NCBI GenBank assembly: GCA_035529575.1
Contig: DATKWM010000009.1
Span: 150-64,149 of the forward strand
DNA from: Desulfatiglandales bacterium
Lineage (GTDB): Bacteria; Desulfobacterota; DSM-4660; Desulfatiglandales; B25-G16
Length of the DNA: 64,000 nt
Reading direction: 5' to 3'
A program made the position numbers and the translations under genes. Below, in pieces: positions 442 to 55,482 of the stretch. Numbering within the stretch: position 1 is the first letter of the stretch; every line of letters starts with the position of its first letter. The notes beneath the pieces are model-generated. The model saw nothing but the letters and a program-made list of their open reading frames with translations, was not told where the DNA came from and did not search any database.

Positions 442-762
442 TGTATCCAATACATTGTGTGCACTCACACAATAAAGACAAAAAAATACATTAAAAACAC
501 ATTAGATTACAGGTAAGTGTTCAAAGGTTCTAAGTTCACCGTTCAAGGTTACCCTTCTTTCAATAACCTTGCTCATAGGCTGGAAAGTGCTTGATAAAAC
601 CACGAATGGCACTACCATGCCTCAATCCGCCAGACGGCAGGCGGATCAATATGCTCAAATAGTTCAATTCTTATGCCTTCTATATTCAGCACTTACGTAT
701 TGCTGGTTCAGATTTTAGGTCAACTCTGAACCCTTGAACCTGTGAAGCTGTGAACGGTTAAG
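442..762. repeat. intergenic repeat module, copy 1: TGTATCCAATACAT box (442-455), GTTCNNN heptad array (519-554), inverted heptad array (705-762)
   Basis: The 14-mer box and the AGGTAA-GTTC-heptad segment recur at 19464-19525 and, more degenerately, at 4462-4500. The left array GTTCAAAG GTTCTAA GTTCACC GTTCAAG GTTACCC is mirrored on the other strand at 726-757. Confidence 0.6.
622..649. repeat. small GC hairpin TCCGCC-N8-GGCGGA flanked by TCAA direct repeats
   Basis: TCAA(622-625) TCCGCC(626-631) agacggca GGCGGA(640-645) TCAA(646-649). The same stem sequence occurs at 49076-49098. Confidence 0.5.
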
Positions 763-16479: not shown

Positions 16480-17556
16480 CTAACTGATCATTTCTACAAA
16501 GGCCTCAACACGGGTTTCTAACTGACCGCTGAGACCCTGGTTTACCTCGCAGTCTATAAGGAGAGTAGCCAGCCCCCTCTTTTTCAGCTCTTCTACAAGA
16601 TGCGGCACATCAAATAGCTCAGTCTCACAGAATTTTACCATATAAAAGATTACCCCTTTGGCTTTGCTACGCTCAATTTTTTTAAAAAGATGATCCGCAC
16701 GTGCTTTCAGAGACGAGTTTTTGGTTGTGCATGGGGGCATACCAAAATAATTCTCGGCCATAGCTTCAAAGGGATCTTCGTTTCTGCTCTCAGGTGACAG
16801 AAGCCGTCTGCCACAATTCAAAAGATCGTCGTCAGCAACCTTCACCCCCATTTCGTCCAGGATTTTGAGGATCTCAGGGGGATTTGGCACAATACCGCTC
16901 AGAATCACTGAGGGACCCTTGCGACCGTGGCCCCTTGAGATGGAAAGGAACTCCTCGAGCAGGGGCAGGAAATCATCAGGATGCAGGTATTCACCTCTTC
17001 GGATTATCTGGTAAAAATCGGTATTAGAGGCGGTAAGTTCATCACAGGCCCTGAGCCTATACAGTTCTTTAAGGAGTGCGGCCACCCGATGCCCCTTCTT
17101 CACCTGCTGTTTCAGTGTGGAGAAATCAAGGGCCCCAAGCTGTGTTTCCAGCCTTAACACTAATCCCTTAAGCTCCTCCAGATAGTAGCGCCTGGATGCG
17201 GCACTGTACGGAGCCTTGGGATGGTAAAAAAAGTAGCAGGGCGTATCGAGGTTCAGGTAATCGGAAACAATAGAGGCCAGATTCTGGATAGAGTCACAGG
17301 TGTGAGGAAACAAGAAGCCATCTATGTCCTTGCACTTGCCCTGCAGTATAAGCTCTAACCCTAGTTTAACTACCGAGCAGATATACGACTGCAGGTGAGC
17401 GTTCGCATGGTTAACCTCGAGTGGCGGATCCCAGACCTCCACTGGCAGCACGTTCATAGCCCAGAGTATCTCTTTGGGGTAGTAGGCAGGGAAAATTCCA
17501 AAAAGTTTTCGCCCCTTTTCCTCCTTCTGCCTCATCAGATATTCTTTGCGTGTCAT
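16480..17556 (-). CDS. 2-hydroxyacyl-CoA dehydratase family subunit (smaller subunit)
   Basis: 358 aa. N-terminus FGIFPAYYPKEILWAMNVLPVEVW and C-terminus FYMVKFCETELFDVP are typical of the HgdB/BcrC family. Confidence 0.7.
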   Translation of the reverse strand: MTRKEYLMRQKEEKGRKLFGIFPAYYPKEILWAMNVLPVEVWDPPLEVNHANAHLQSYICSVVKLGLELILQGKCKDIDGFLFPHTCDSIQNLASIVSDYLNLDTPCYFFYHPKAPYSAASRRYYLEELKGLVLRLETQLGALDFSTLKQQVKKGHRVAALLKELYRLRACDELTASNTDFYQIIRRGEYLHPDDFLPLLEEFLSISRGHGRKGPSVILSGIVPNPPEILKILDEMGVKVADDDLLNCGRRLLSPESRNEDPFEAMAENYFGMPPCTTKNSSLKARADHLFKKIERSKAKGVIFYMVKFCETELFDVPHLVEELKKRGLATLLIDCEVNQGLSGQLETRVEAFVEMIS

Positions 17557-17578: not shown

Positions 17579-18340
17579 TTAATTCACGTTTAATCCCTTT
17601 TCCCTTAAATAATCCTTCACCTCTCTAATGCTTAAGATGTGATAATGAAACACAGAAGCAGCCAGGAGAATCTGTGCGCCACCTAAAACCACCCCTTCAT
17701 AGAAATGTGTGAGCTTTCCAGCACCACCTGAAGCCACTACCGGTAAATCAACGACATCTGAAATGGCTTTTGTATATTCAAGATCATATCCTGCCTGTGT
17801 TCCATCTCCATCCATACTGGTGGGTAAAATTACACCTGCACCCAGTTCCTGACACCGTTTGGCCCACTCGATAGCATCCTTCCCAGTTGGTTGTGTACCA
17901 CCTGAAACAACCAACTCAAAACCAGAGGCCATCTCGTTATTCCTTCTTGCATCGATCGCCACAGTGATCCTTTCTGATCCAAATTGTTCCGCCCCTTCCC
18001 TGATGATATCAGGATTCCTTACTGCCGCACTGTTCATAGAAACCTTATTCGCGCCTGCTTTCAAGACCACATCAATATCCTCTAACACAGATATTCCCCC
18101 TCCAACGGTGAGAGGGATATCGATAACCGACGAGACATTTCGTACCCATTCCAGTTGGGTTTTTCTTCTCTCTACTGTTGCCGCTATATCAAGCATGGCC
18201 AGCTCATCGGCTCCTTCTTTTTGATATAAGATCGCATTTTCTACTGGATCGCCGGCATGTTTCAGATCAACAAAATGGATTCCCTTGACTACCCTCCCCT
18301 CTTTCATATCAAGACAGGGCATTATTTTAATTGTATCCAT
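17579..18340 (-). CDS. hisF: imidazole glycerol phosphate synthase, cyclase subunit HisF
   Basis: [22 protein letters not shown] and SGGAG motifs. ATG at 18340 has an AGAGGA RBS. The ORF itself extends to 18373. Confidence 0.9.
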
Positions 18341-18745
18341 AAATTCCTCTTTTTTCTCTTTGGGTAACACCAATCTTACACTCTCCTACGACACCTGCTC
18401 ACATTATCTGAGTATTCTCAAAATCAGATCAGGCATTTTCCTAACACTGCATGGCATCATAGTATTCAATACCAATGTATGCAAATCTCTTAAAGCATAC
18501 GGCGAGACCTTTGAAAAACCTGACAGTTTCTGCCATCCTCATCAAAAAATATGGATTTTGCAAATATCTCACGGCATTCAGGTAGCTACTATTGCATACT
18601 CTCATCTTCTATATCAATTTCTTTCTTACTCTGCAAAGGGGATGGCTTGACAATGTAAAATTCTACCTTATCTTTTACGCTTAAGAAGTGATGAAATATG
18701 GCCTGCTGCAGTGTCCATAGTAAATGGCAGACATAGTACAATACG

Positions 18746-19345
18746 ATGGAGTTATACACCATGCTTAGAAAATTAGTTGTTGGCCCTTATCAGGCTAACT
18801 GTTATATTTTAGGTTGCAAAGAAACAAAAGAGGGCGTTGTAATTGACCCTGGAGATGAAGTATTGCGTATTGTAAAAGAAATCTCAGAGAATGCTCTGAA
18901 GATCCTCTACATACTCATTACCCACGGTCACATTGATCATATTGGGGGTGCTGGTGAACTAAAACAAATAACCAAGGCTCCCCTATTCATTCACAACCTT
19001 GATGCCCCAGGCCTACATTTTAGACCAGATGGATATCTCTACGATGGCCAAGAACTACACTTCGGCACTTATAGTATCTCAGTGATTCATACTCCTGGCC
19101 ACTCTCCCGGGGGAGTGAGCTTCCATTCTCCTGGCGCTATCTTTACTGGTGATACCCTTTTTGCAGGTTCTATAGGAAGAACCGATTTTCCTGGAGGAGA
19201 TCATAACAAATTGATAGATGGGGCTGTAACAAAGATCTTCCCCTTAGGAGATGATGTGCGAGTATATCCAGGACATGGCCCGACAACCACAGTTGGCAGA
19301 GAGCGCCTTACAAACCCCTTTTTCAGCTCCAGCCACACCTTTTGA
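18746..19345 (+). CDS. MBL-fold metallo-hydrolase (glyoxalase II-like)
   Basis: THGHIDHIGG metal motif. GPYQANCY N-terminus. TPGHSPGG. Confidence 0.8.
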   Translation: MELYTMLRKLVVGPYQANCYILGCKETKEGVVIDPGDEVLRIVKEISENALKILYILITHGHIDHIGGAGELKQITKAPLFIHNLDAPGLHFRPDGYLYDGQELHFGTYSISVIHTPGHSPGGVSFHSPGAIFTGDTLFAGSIGRTDFPGGDHNKLIDGAVTKIFPLGDDVRVYPGHGPTTTVGRERLTNPFFSSSHTF

Positions 19346-19463
19346 ACGTATACATGCCATTTTATACGCCTTGGTACGGTATATTTTATATCTGTTCAAA
19401 CGCATCACAAAGGCCATGGATGTCTTTTTTTGCTGTTGAATGGGGAAGCCTTTTTATATAGAC

Positions 19464-19640
19464 TGTATCCAATACATAGGTAACTGCTCAGGTTCAAAGT
19501 TCCCAAGTTCACCGTTCAATGTGAGAAAACGATGAACATACCTGCCCGGCAGACGTCAGACGGGGACCAGTATGAAGATGAGGCAACTAATCCCGATTTC
19601 ATCGGGAAACCTTGAATCTCACCTGCCGTCCGGCGGGCAG
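19464..19640. repeat. intergenic repeat module, copy 3 (TGTATCCAATACAT box 19464-19477, GTTCNNN heptads 19491-19525, GC palindromes 19541-19640)
   Basis: Shares the 14-mer box and the AGGTAAcTG..GGTTCAAAGTTCcCAAGTTCACCGTTCAA segment with 442-550. Confidence 0.5.
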
Positions 19641-19722
19641 GCCTGAACCTGATAACCCGACTAATTACATAAATAGATTCCACGAGATCTTTGCACAACC
19701 TGACAATCTTTGTAACCCAAGA

Positions 19723-19902
19723 AAAGAGGGTGGACTTTTCTGGGCTGGCGTAAGGGCGATGTTTTTTCGCAACTTATCAGTGGGGGAAACCGTAGGCCCC
19801 GACATGTCGGGGCAATGCGGAGGGGGTAAAACTCTCCCATAGATAAGTTGCTGAAAAGACCAGCCCGAGATCCTCGGAACTGAAGAAAAACCCACCCTCT
19901 TT
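19723..19902. ncRNA. candidate structured RNA (or hairpin element), about 180 nt, rod-like nested helices, class unknown
   Basis: Nested complementary pairs: 19723-19733/19892-19902 (11 bp), 19741-19748/19860-19867 (8 bp, one G-U), 19769-19778/19842-19851 (10 bp), 19781-19786/19834-19839 (6 bp), and an apical palindrome GCCCCGAcatgTCGGGGC. No plausible ORF. Strand undetermined. Confidence 0.3.
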
Positions 19903-20047
19903 AAGGGAATATAAGTTATGCAAAGCTCTCTCCACAGGTGCTATTCATAGTAAGAAACCCTGTAGCACAGAATTGATGCCATTTTCTGTGTGGGTGAGCG
20001 GACCTTAATTACTCATCCATGAAGAAAAATTGAGGGGACAAGAGCGC

Positions 20048-20842
20048 ATGGATCCATTGATTGCCAAAGGCGCAGATATGATACAAAAATCTGAAAAGAT
20101 TCTCGTGTTCTCAGGGGCCGGACTGAGTACGGAATCGGGTATTCCTGATTTCAGAAGCCCGGGAGGTGTCTGGAGCAGGTACGATCCATCAGATTTTTTC
20201 TTTGATAAAATTGTATCGGATGAAAACACCAGGGAAAAATACTGGCAGATGAGCACAGAGTTTTACCAGACTATGAAAGATGCTGTCCCAAACCGTGCTC
20301 ACCGTGCGATTAAAGTTCTGGAAGACATGGGCAAGCTCCTATCGGTAGTCACCCAGAACATCGACTGGCTTCACCATAAGTCAGGAAACTCGCCAGACAA
20401 AATCATTGAAATTCACGGCACCGCTTTTTCAGTTTCCTGTCTCAGTTGTGGAAAAAAATATGACAGGGATGAAATACAACAACGGATACAATCAGGCGTG
20501 AAAGTCCCGTATTGTGACGATTGCTCCGGTATCCTCAAACCAGATACTATCTCATTTGGCCAGGCCATGCCTGAAGAAAAGATGGCGACCGCAATTATGC
20601 ATGCTCGCGAATGTGATCTCTGTATCGTATTAGGCTCTTCACTCGTTGTGTATCCTGCTGCTTCTGTTCCTCTTACAGCAGTTCAAAGCGGGGCAAAGCT
20701 GATGATAATAAATCGCGATGAAACACCCCTTGATTCCATGGCAAGCCTGGTGATCCATGAATCAGTCTCTCATGTGTTAGGGGATATGCTTGAGATGTCA
20801 ACGACGCCGCCCTCCCGGACGCGGCTTGAAAAAAGGAAATAA
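20048..20842 (+). CDS. cobB: NAD-dependent protein deacylase (Sir2 / CobB family)
   Basis: GAGLSTESGIPDFRS, QNIDWLH and HG motifs. CxxC...CxxC zinc ribbon (CLSCG / CDDCSG). The ORF extends to TTG 20030. Confidence 0.85.
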   Translation: MDPLIAKGADMIQKSEKILVFSGAGLSTESGIPDFRSPGGVWSRYDPSDFFFDKIVSDENTREKYWQMSTEFYQTMKDAVPNRAHRAIKVLEDMGKLLSVVTQNIDWLHHKSGNSPDKIIEIHGTAFSVSCLSCGKKYDRDEIQQRIQSGVKVPYCDDCSGILKPDTISFGQAMPEEKMATAIMHARECDLCIVLGSSLVVYPAASVPLTAVQSGAKLMIINRDETPLDSMASLVIHESVSHVLGDMLEMSTTPPSRTRLEKRK

Positions 20843-20975
20843 CTTATTGGCCGCCCACATTCCTGCTCTTCAGGCTGTGGGATTAAAAGGCAGCGGTAAA
20901 TTTTTTCCTTGAAGCCAGGCAAGATTGCGTCTATATAACATTTTATGTAAAAAATCGAGTTGTAAGGAGGGAATA

Positions 20976-22091
20976 ATGTTACGAATCGGTTTTATTGGGT
21001 GGCGAGGTATGGTTGGATCAGTTCTGCTGGGCCGTATGCAAGAAGAACAGGACTTTAAAGGTTTTGAACCAATATTTTTTACTACCTCAAATGTCAATGG
21101 GAAAGGCCCTGATGTGGGCCTTGACATTCCTCCATTAAAGGATGCCTTTGACATCGAGCTCCTTTCCTCAATGGATATCATTCTGACCTGCCAGGGAGGT
21201 GATTATACAAAGAAAGTGTACCCCGAAGTACGCAACCAAGGATGGAAAGGCTACTGGATAGATTCTGCGTCTGCCCTTCGTATGAAGGATGATAGCATTA
21301 TTGTCCTGGACCCTGTAAACAGGGCTGTGATAGACGCTGGATTATCATCAGGAATCAAAACCTATGTGGGTGGGAACTGTACCGTGAGTCTGATGCTTAT
21401 GGCCCTTTCAGGTCTTTTTGCCTCGGGTCATATTGAGTGGGTATCTTCTATGACCTATCAGTCAGCATCAGGCGCCGGTGCCAAGCACATGAAAGAGTTG
21501 ATTGCCCAAATGACCATCCTCGGGGATACCTCCAGAACCCTGCTTGATGACCCGGCATCCACGGCCATAGCCATTGATGAGGTTGTGACAAAGGAATTGA
21601 GAAGCAACGCATTTCCAGTTGAAAATTTCTCGGCTCCTCTTGCTGGCAGCCTGATTCCATGGATTGACTCTGCAATGGAATCCGGACAGACCAGAGAGGA
21701 ATGGAAAGGCTCCGCTGAAACAAACAAGATTTTGCAAACAAAAAAACCGATACCCGTAGACGGTCTATGCGTTCGCGTGGGTGCCATGAGATGCCACAGT
21801 CAGGGCCTGACCATCAAGCTTGACAAGGATATACCTCTTGATGAAGTCTCTGAGATGATTGAAAAAGGTAATCAGTGGGTGACACTAATCCCTAATGATA
21901 AAGAATCTACCCTTCAATTCTTAACACCTGCAGCGGTAAACTCTACACTGACCATTCCCGTGGGTAGACTGCGAAAGATGCTCTTAGGGCCTGAATATGT
22001 GGCTGCCTTTACTGTGGGAGACCAGCTCCTCTGGGGTGCCGCGGAGCCTATTCGTAGTATATTAAATATCATAATCAGTTACTTATCGTGA
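20976..22091 (+). CDS. asd: aspartate-semialdehyde dehydrogenase
   Basis: AAGGAGGG RBS before ATG 20976. [18 protein letters not shown]-terminus. [13 protein letters not shown] active-site Cys. Confidence 0.9.
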
Positions 22092-22126
22092 TTATTTAAT
22101 ATGTTAGTTTAATCTTTACAAACTCG

Positions 22127-22492
22127 TAGAAAGTCTTTTGCGAGCGATTTTGGCCACTTTTGGAAAGTGATTCATGAAATGCTGAGCGTTAAAATCGCCA
22201 AACTGTTTGAGGAGCATGTGTATGTCTTTTTTTGTCAAATGCCCAAAACAAAGGCCCGTTCAGGGGCGTTTCAAAAAGGTGCATATGTACGGAGTAATAG
22301 AAGACAAGGGCATGTTGCTTTGCACCATTTTGAAACGGCCCACTACTGTGAATTTATAGGGCATTACAAAAAAAGACATACACATGCTCCTTCTCAGACT
22401 CTTAGGCCGAGTTTTTGGAATTTAGCGAAGCATTTCATGAATCCCAAAATGGGCATCATGAGCGAGTAAAAGGACTTTTTGCGAGACTATCA
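22127..22492 (+). mobile_element. about 366-bp quasi-palindromic repeat element, copy A (MITE-like or structured-RNA-like; no transposase)
   Basis: About 94% identical, by manual alignment, to the reverse complement of 48781-49162. Internal perfect inverted repeats 22211-22235/22366-22390 (25 bp) and 22169-22183/22429-22443 (15 bp). Confidence 0.7.
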
Positions 22493-22530
22493 ATCTTAGA
22501 ATCCATTAGAACCGTATGTTCAGGGCTCAA

Positions 22531-48423: not shown

Positions 48424-48780
48424 GTGCTATTAGTTGTCCGCTGGCCACATCGTTCACATTTCTGCAATAAACTTCTATCGCGTGATAATTCTTACATATA
48501 AAACGATTGTAAGCTGTATTGCAAAGTCTTATAGATTCGATCCGGGTAATGACTCACAGCAACAGTCCCAGGCTCTGCATAGCCCTCCGACACAATCTCT
48601 TTAAAAAAGCCCTTTCAATGATTTCCGCCCACATTGACGTACTCCAGTTAGTAGCCGTATGATCACAAAGAAACTATTGAATGAATCGAGAGCAAATCTG
48701 AGACCTTGTCACGGAAATAATGCTTTCCGCCTGACAATTGTATGTATACAAAAAGATTTAGTTATCTTACAATAATGATG

Positions 48781-49162
48781 TTCTTGCAAAAAGTCCTTTT
48801 ACTTGCTCATGATGCCCATTTTGGGATTCATGAAATGCTTCGCTCAATTCCAAAAACTTGGCCTAAGGCTCTGAGAAGGAGCATATGTATGTCTTTTTTT
48901 GTAATGCCCTATACATTCACAGTAATGGGTCGTTTCAAAATGGTGCAAAGCAATATGCCCTTGTCTTCTATTGCTCCGTACATCTGCACCTTTTTGAAAC
49001 GCCCCTGAACGGGCCTCTGTTTTGGGCATTTGACAAAAAAAGACATACATATGCTCCTCAAACAGTTCGGCGATTTTAATCCGCCTGAGGCGGATTAACG
49101 CTCAGCATTTTATGAATCTTTTTCCAAAAGTGGCCAAAATCGCTCGCAAAAGACTTTTTACA
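48781..49162 (-). mobile_element. about 382-bp quasi-palindromic repeat element, copy B (inverted relative to copy A, carries a 19-nt hairpin insertion)
   Basis: Its reverse complement aligns end-to-end with 22127-22492. The internal 25-bp inverted repeat is conserved with a paired G:C to A:T change. Confidence 0.7.
49076..49098. repeat. small GC hairpin TTAA-TCCGCC-tga-GGCGGA-TTAA, an indel relative to copy A
   Basis: Copy A reads gcgTTAAaatcgcc at the homologous site (22187-22200). Copy B has TCCGCCTCAGGCGGA plus a second TTAA inserted. Confidence 0.55.
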
Positions 49163-49282
49163 AGCTTTTCAATAATAAAACACAAAGATAAAAAAATGTC
49201 ATAAGATCGGTGTAAACGAAAAAAGTGAGGTGAATCTTTCCCGTGGATTAATGGAGGGTAAAAGCAAAAGAGGAGGTGTACA

Positions 49283-55405: not shown

Positions 55406-55482
55406 GGCGGTGTAGCTCAGGTGGTTAGAGCATACGGCTCATATCCGTAGTGTCCGGGGTTCGAGTCCCTGCACCGCCACCA
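55406..55482 (+). tRNA. tRNA-Met (anticodon CAT), elongator type; a lysidine-modified tRNA-Ile2 cannot be excluded
   Basis: Manual cloverleaf: acceptor GGCGGTG/CACCGCC, D-arm GCTC/GAGC, anticodon arm TACGG-CTCATAT-CCGTA, T-arm CGGGG-TTCGAGT-CCCTG, encoded CCA. G1-C72 and the lack of a GGG/CCC anticodon stem argue against an initiator. Confidence 0.93.

Follow-up and report, generated by a model that had tools for sequence, protein, structure and literature searches.

The spacer in front of a sirtuin gene in a Desulfatiglandales genome folds into a long hairpin, and the question is whether this hairpin belongs to a regulatory RNA gene or to something else. The window, that is, the whole stretch of 64,000 nucleotides analyzed here, carries at this locus the genes for an HGD-D family protein (16480-17556, minus strand), a HisF-like cyclase (17579-18373, minus strand), a metallo-beta-lactamase-fold hydrolase (MBL; 18761-19345, plus strand), the Sir2 deacetylase (20048-20842, plus strand), and aspartate-semialdehyde dehydrogenase (asd; 20925-22091, plus strand). 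NCBI HUV58598.1, encoded in a Desulfatiglandales MAG, has exactly the sequence of this Sir2 protein. Between the MBL stop codon and the Sir2 ATG (20048) lie 702 nt. In this spacer a preliminary description had placed a rod of about 180 nt with a big central bubble (19723-19902), likening it to 6S RNA and naming a hairpin-type mobile element as the alternative. The evidence presented below favors the alternative. With a probability of about 0.9, a non-autonomous DNA transposon (MITE) has one of its copies at 19684-19930; its host is a Desulfatiglandales genome, and its family is undescribed in the literature searched. The literature search found no paper linking Desulfatiglans to MITEs.

The hairpin core and its folding

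Direct reading of the sequence bore out each of the nested stems that had been proposed. P1 joins 19723-19733 (AAAGAGGGTGG) to 19892-19902 (CCACCCTCTTT) over 11 bp, and P2 joins 19741-19748 (TGGGCTGG) to 19860-19867 (CCAGCCCG) over 8 bp including one G-U. P3 consists of 10 bp between 19769-19778 (GCAACTTATC) and 19842-19851 (GATAAGTTGC), and P4 of 6 bp, one of them G-U, between 19781-19786 (TGGGGG) and 19834-19839 (CTCCCA). The 18-nt palindrome described at the apex is present at 19796-19813 (GCCCCGACATGTCGGGGC; no strand assigned) and represents the type A apex module of the family. These stems and the apex form the inner rod (19723..19902, plus strand), the stems of which are nearly invariant in 53 copies.

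Comparison with shuffled controls, a check proposed in the preliminary description, placed the fold far beyond chance. The plus strand RNA of 19723-19902 reaches a minimum free energy of -87.9 kcal/mol, whereas dinucleotide shuffles give -55.6 +/- 4.0 (z = -8.0; 0 of 200 shuffles equally good), and the minus strand RNA reaches -78.2 kcal/mol (z = -7.6). The pairing continues past these limits, and 19684-19930 is one continuous rod (-105.7 kcal/mol as RNA, z = -7.0; -55.7 kcal/mol as DNA, z = -6.9). The rod had thus been recognized correctly as a fold but not in its extent, since the full feature measures 247 nt and the outer 39 and 28 nt, which hold the TIRs, had been missed. The big central bubble is replaced by two staggered side branches, one per strand and not opposed; each of these unpaired regions forms a small hairpin of its own, and their length varies among copies. 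The two 76-aa ORFs across the rod had been regarded as noise, in agreement with the lack of any Pfam match to them and with length differences among subfamilies that are not multiples of three.

A transposon copy upstream of the Sir2 gene

The full-length copy at 19684..19930 is 247 bp long (the family mode is 251 bp) and lies on the plus strand in the orientation of the family consensus. Its boundaries are given by BLAST and by an nhmmer search of the window with the family profile, which matched 19684-19930 from model positions 2 to 251 with E = 3.3e-82. The TIRs of the window copy are 16 nt long. The left one, GAGATCTTTGCACAAC (19684..19699, plus strand), agrees at 14 of 16 positions with the reverse complement of 19915-19930, and the right one, GTTATGCAAAGCTCTC (19915..19930, minus strand; reverse complement GAGAGCTTTGCATAAC), was delimited by sequence reading and the family alignment. 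The family consensus is KAGASCTTTGCAMAAC. Immediately outside the TIRs the window copy is bracketed by the 5-bp target-site duplication TCCAC, identical at 19679..19683 and, by sequence reading, at 19931..19935 (no strand assigned to either). The element is short and non-coding: copies range from 231 to 259 bp, below 500 bp, and their ORFs have no Pfam match. The ends are conserved among copies.

The mobile-element alternative was therefore correct as to class, the feature being multi-copy with TIRs and target-site duplications, while the TIRs and the TCCAC duplication of this copy had been overlooked. An empty allele at the window's own site was found neither in the population nor in the syntenic relatives examined, all of which carry the copy, and this counts against the MITE reading.

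A plausible history can be outlined for such a copy. A transposase encoded elsewhere would recognize the terminal repeats, cut an AT-rich target with a 5-nt stagger, and insert the element; repair of the gaps would then produce the 5-bp duplication. The long rod would arise from the two arms being inverted copies of each other. Where the spacer is transcribed, a very stable stem-loop should appear in the MBL-Sir2 intergenic RNA, and this stem-loop could incidentally affect processing or read-through with no dedicated RNA gene being involved.

Copies across genomes and metagenomes

A first scan of a genome collection (596 Gb) with a 16-base TIR-stem motif gave 119 matches, most of them due to chance because the motif was too short. 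When these loci were compared with the spacer by BLAST, only two proved real. One, L087, comes from a Desulfobacteraceae MAG; its match to window 19682-19930 has 88.5% identity over 253 nt, and the gene downstream of it is RmlD-like instead of Sir2. The other, L016, is a partial copy of the MITE family. A second scan, with a 30-nt gapped motif against a metagenome collection, yielded 93 loci, in which BLAST found 66 full-length matches of 72-97% identity sharing the boundaries of window 19684-19930. A profile census of 628 kb of loci counted 75 full and 34 partial copies, with two or three copies in 14 loci. In a control of 837 kb of unrelated genomes, only L087 and L016 matched the family profile.

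After merging the same insertion seen on several contigs, 53 distinct insertion sites remained. An exact 5-bp duplication stands at the predicted boundary in 25 of them, against 14 of 2756 (0.5%) when the left flank of one copy was paired with the right flank of another. With a boundary error of +/-3 nt allowed, 42 of the 53 sites show the repeat, compared with 6.6% of the mismatched pairs. The duplicated 5-mers vary from site to site (24 different ones) and are richer in A+T than the background (72% vs 58%). The copies are intergenic, and the adjoining genes are unrelated housekeeping genes. A duplication of fixed length and variable sequence, and many dispersed copies beside unrelated genes, are features expected of a MITE.

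A further feature is the empty orthologous site. Predicted empty sites were built from the two flanks of each copy and run against all fetched DNA, which gave one clean case. At L190:4690-4927 the filled site reads GAAAT, then a 238-nt element, then GAAATGTGTCAA, with the duplication GAAAT/GAAAT. In the orthologous L169, whose flanks are 89% identical, AAAAT occurs once and the element is absent; the sequence there reads AAAATGTGTCAA. L133/L214 was considered as an empty site for L137 and was rejected, as it carries an independent, truncated insertion. In Desulfatiglandales/Desulfobacterota genomes from sediments the family thus occupies many scattered intergenic sites that are unrelated to one another, and it is active enough to yield filled and empty alleles.

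Conserved helices and interchangeable modules

The alignment of the 53 copies shows a common framework of paired segments: AAGAGGGTGG with CCAYCCTCTT, CTTTTCT with GAAGAAAAG, ACTGG with CCAG, TCTTTTCGCAACTTATC with GATAAGTTGCTGAAAAGA, and GTGGGGGA with CTCCCCC. Upon this framework the rod bears three variable modules, namely the apex, the left branch, and the right branch. At least three apex hairpins, GC-rich and unrelated to one another, can be distinguished; of the aligned copies, 39 have type A, 9 have type C, and 5 have type B. The left branch is 58 nt longer in L225/L227, and the right branch is 7 nt longer in L159, L197, and L234. The outermost 5-6 nt of the termini vary among subfamilies, and the inner stems are nearly invariant; the reverse pattern is seen in many MITE families, a point that counts against the MITE reading. 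Part of this invariance is due to ascertainment, because the search motif sits in the inner stems.

Size variants also exist. Long variants of about 380-415 nt (L172, L016, L139, L211) share the outer stem and have a different nested palindromic core. In L172:33-410, L016:1-215, and L211:1075-1490 the outer stem contains AAAAGAGGGTGGGCTTTTCTGA and the core contains GGGATATGGATGTCTTTTTTTTGAAACC ... GGTTCAAAAAAAAGATATTCATATCCC; a similar motif, ATGGATGTCTTTTTTT, occurs in the window at 19416-19437. L134 and L146 have half copies that stop precisely at the tip of the hairpin. Both half copies (L134:7700-8480, minus strand; L146:6010-6800) are followed by a VapB/VapC-like (PIN-domain) toxin-antitoxin pair.

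The 6S RNA reading

According to the 6S reading, the hairpin would be the gene of a 6S or 6S-like regulatory RNA, a rod of about 180 nt whose bubble mimics an open promoter and sequesters RNA polymerase. The size of the inner rod, its overall outline with internal loops, its highly stable fold, and the better folding of the plus strand all fit this proposal. However, cmscan of the whole window at the gathering score returned no 6S RNA; the only match was to a tRNA. This tRNA gene lies at 55406-55479 on the plus strand and scores 65.3 bits. A scan of 19350-20060 with permissive filters, at E<=10, likewise gave no match within the hairpin to 6S (RF00013) or any other Rfam family, so that the Rfam comparison suggested earlier went against 6S even at this threshold; two chance snoRNA matches in the same scan fall outside the hairpin. 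A consensus scan for sigma70-like promoters found none in or just upstream of the element.

The structure itself also departs from 6S RNA, which has a conserved central bubble with opposed sides, placed between its closing stem and its terminal stem. Here the bubble resolves into the two staggered side branches, variable in length and sequence among copies, as with the 58-nt extension on the left in L225/L227 and the 7-nt extension on the right in L159/L197/L234, and the apex modules are interchangeable. The preliminary description had held that multiple genomic copies would speak against a single-copy RNA gene, and copies occur at more than 50 distinct sites. The element is not a single-copy RNA gene, because it is a dispersed multi-copy repeat with TIRs and target-site duplications. 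A 6S-like gene is accordingly so improbable that it can practically be set aside, and the MITE reading is retained in what follows.

The Sir2 locus in the population and in relatives

Nine public contigs encode the exact Sir2 of the window, and all are about 99.9% identical to it. Six of them end within the element or at its edge, at 19622, 19794, 19824, 19841, and 19901 (twice). Contigs found through the MBL gene either end at 19616-19954, some of them at 19920-19954, or begin at 18505/18506. The contig ends cluster at the element because assemblers break at repeated sequence.

Two contigs of the same population, with flanks 99.5-99.97% identical, show a second allele at the site of window 19740-19752 (L225:3480-3550 and L227:3212-3282). 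This allele has the left branch that is 58 nt longer, and the rest of its element is only 95-97% identical to the window copy. Either gene conversion has really taken place here, or the assembly is chimeric across the repeat.

A group of relatives about 92% identical to the window (L234-L238) has the same gene order, HGD-D, hisF, MBL, Sir2, and asd, with the element at the same position and flanked by the same TCCAC duplication. The insertion therefore predates the divergence of these relatives from the window lineage; it is old and common to relatives about 8% diverged. In these relatives the copy carries a type C apex, in place of type A in the window, two of them have an alternative right branch, and the left terminus has decayed to CCGATATTTGTACAAC. 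Between window and relatives the flanks diverge by 5-10% and the arms by 4-9%, so that the arms evolve about as fast as neutral spacer, while the apex, at more than 50%, has been replaced. At a second orthologous site, L185/L175 hold a type A copy (251 nt) and L161/L141 a type C copy (237 nt). Copies thus exchange internal modules, comprising the apex and the two side branches. That the apex differs at two orthologous sites suggests that dispersed copies have recombined with one another or undergone gene conversion.

The Sir2 gene does not depend on this association. In L231-L233 a Sir2 that is 92% identical stands behind different upstream genes, and no copy of the MITE family was found at these three loci; Sir2 is therefore independent of the element.

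A minimal derivative and other repeats in the window

A profile search of the 64-kb window detected the family nowhere besides 19684-19930 and 18504-18570. The second match (18504..18570, plus strand), identified by its duplication and by nhmmer, is a mini-derivative of 67 nt located 1.1 kb upstream of the full copy. It consists of both TIRs, GAGACCTTTGAAAAAC and (as reverse complement) GAGATATTTGCAAAAT, with almost no interior, and matches model positions 1-41. It has its own exact 5-bp duplication, ACGGC, at 18499-18503 and 18571-18575. The Logan contigs L229 and L230 start at 18505/18506, that is, at the edge of this derivative.

Several other repeats were observed nearby. A segment of 147 nt that includes the derivative (18428-18574) is missing from the relatives L234-L238. 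To the left of the derivative it ends in ...AATGTATGCAAATCTC, which resembles the right terminus of the MITE family, and this spacer may contain a further remnant. About 200 nt just upstream of the full copy (19470-19669) are also missing from L234-L238 and, being absent from these syntenic relatives, are therefore an insertion in the window lineage. An inverted motif, TCAGGTTCA/TGAACCTGA, is common to the two ends of this insertion. The left 31 nt of the insertion (19492-19522) have a counterpart of 87% identity at window 519-549 and recur in L165 and L187, and an inner part (19584-19651) recurs in L143, L147, L175, L176, and L190. The insertion probably represents a second small family, mobile or palindromic, that is nested in the MBL-Sir2 spacer.

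Farther away, 22108-22497 and 48771-49179 form a repeat pair of about 390 nt in inverted orientation, 88-94% identical. Within each member lie the two halves of a perfect 26-bp inverted repeat, with 130 nt between them, and a called ORF of 45 aa. By profile search they are unrelated to the MITE family. Beyond this repeat, contig L004 runs on into genes for ApbA and HhH-GPD, both missing from the window; this suggests that a rearrangement took place or that another copy exists.

Possible selection on the rod

The MITE reading explains the rod as a by-product of inverted arms. It can also be asked whether the rod has a selected function of its own, as RNA or as a single-stranded DNA hairpin. It might serve, for instance, as a small RNA borne by the MITE, a site for RNase III or other processing, an mRNA stabilizer or attenuator, or a structure used in transposition. 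MITE-derived small RNAs are documented in Coxiella (PMC10969869), and this precedent was counted in favor of the proposal. So was the maintenance of the stems while the left branch, the apex, and the right branch vary.

The alignment offers some covariation. RNAalifold on the 53 copies predicts 67 pairs, and double-sided changes, although few (4 pairs in its table), do occur. An apex pair is C-G in 11 copies and T-A in 24, and terminal position 5 is G-C in 24 copies and C-G in 9. The covariation check recommended in the preliminary description nevertheless gave a weak result: of the -61 kcal/mol, the covariation term supplies only -1.4, and the majority of pairs show no variation at all.

The two strands differ as well. 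The plus strand RNA is the more stable one in 52 of 53 copies. Wobble-type mismatches favor the plus strand in 256 against 122 cells in a fold-free arm-versus-arm alignment; a count made on the plus strand-derived structure gave 388 against 29 and is biased to that strand. These cells correspond to few independent events because the copies share ancestry, and in the consensus the asymmetry is only 5 against 1. The fold-free asymmetry is suggestive, and it would not be required of a purely DNA-level element, a point that counts against the plain MITE reading. The copies also show a mild co-orientation with flanking genes (17 vs 8), but this bias is not significant.

Other observations oppose selection on the rod. 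Arms and flanks evolve at the same pace where the orthologous copies are compared. The 67-nt derivative has no rod, yet it has intact ends and a duplication of its own. Sir2 occurs without the element, and no internal promoter was found. Taken together, the data give only weak hints of selection on the hairpin itself, and a selected rod is unlikely. The more specific proposal of a transposon that carries a functional structured RNA or single-stranded DNA hairpin, either a regulatory or guide-like RNA or a hairpin needed by the transposase, is a shade less likely again. If it were true, the conserved helices, the three interchangeable modules, and the wobble bias toward one strand would reflect selection, and the element would be more than a passive palindrome.

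The presumed mobilizing enzyme and known repeat families

A transposase or autonomous element with matching ends was found neither in about 1.5 Mb of fetched DNA nor in plasmids, phages, and viral contigs; this counts against the MITE reading, in which we infer mobilization in trans. Clustering of all ORFs of at least 150 aa across the loci gave only ordinary paralogs, namely acyl-CoA dehydrogenases, histidine kinases, and sigma54 activators. Several candidates for a parent IS were considered and rejected. IS-sized intervals between extra termini (L160/L169, L137) hold V-ATPase and glycosyltransferase genes. L172 is a long variant of about 380 nt beside TRAP-transporter genes, L211 is a composite of partial copies, and L134 and L146 are half copies adjoining the VapBC-like pair.

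The family might instead belong to another class of repeats: REP/BIME elements moved by a RAYT transposase, IS200/IS605-type palindromic elements (PATEs), or Tn3-derived TIMEs. Its palindromic, intergenic, and multi-copy character would suit such a class. REPs, however, are short units of 20-40 nt that create no duplication, and elements of the IS200/IS605 type, which have subterminal hairpins, lack TIRs as well as duplications. The present element has both TIRs and 5-bp duplications, which argues against these two types. TIMEs share the 5-bp target-site duplication and the preference for AT-rich targets. Tn3-family ends are about 38 bp long, start with GGGG, and end with TAAG. The ends of the element start with GAGA or TAGA without the GGGG start, and its terminal repeats are not of the 38-bp GGGG...TAAG form. 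Membership in any of these classes is very unlikely.

In prokaryotes a MITE is defined as an element of less than 500 bp that has TIRs of 4-30 bp, is flanked by direct repeats, targets AT-rich intergenic DNA, and forms stable stem-loops when transcribed (PMC10969869), and the features of the window family agree with this published definition. For Chunjie, a MITE of Geobacter uraniireducens, that review, citing Chen et al. 2008, gives a length of 235 bp and counts 38 full copies and 57 partial ones, and it presents Chunjie and the QMITEs as size-variant families (PMC10969869). As far as this description goes, Chunjie resembles the window family in its length of about 240 bp, its lack of coding capacity, its TIRs and direct target duplications, its many full, partial, and size-variant intergenic copies, and its predicted stable stem-loop transcript. 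Its host likewise belongs to an anaerobic 'deltaproteobacterial' lineage. In this comparison, made by description and not by sequence, the window family stands apart in that its copies at orthologous sites have swapped apex and branch modules.

Correia (NEMIS) elements of Neisseria and ERIC elements of enterobacteria are also similar, being imperfect palindromes over their whole length that form long hairpins when co-transcribed, with intergenic, multi-copy distribution and size variants having internal insertions or deletions. In contrast to the 5-bp duplication of the window family, Correia elements duplicate TA, and they have characterized promoter, IHF, and RNase III features. The window family has no sequence similarity to Correia or ERIC, and its host phylum differs.

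Implications

The finding corrects the interpretation of the rod with z = -8 beside the sirtuin gene, which is a mobile repeat and not a regulatory RNA gene. Screens for structured RNAs in Desulfobacterota MAGs should mask this MITE family. The element also accounts for the breaks that short-read assemblies of these sediment genomes show in the Sir2 spacer, and the apex swaps at orthologous sites provide a small and tractable example of recombination between dispersed repeats.
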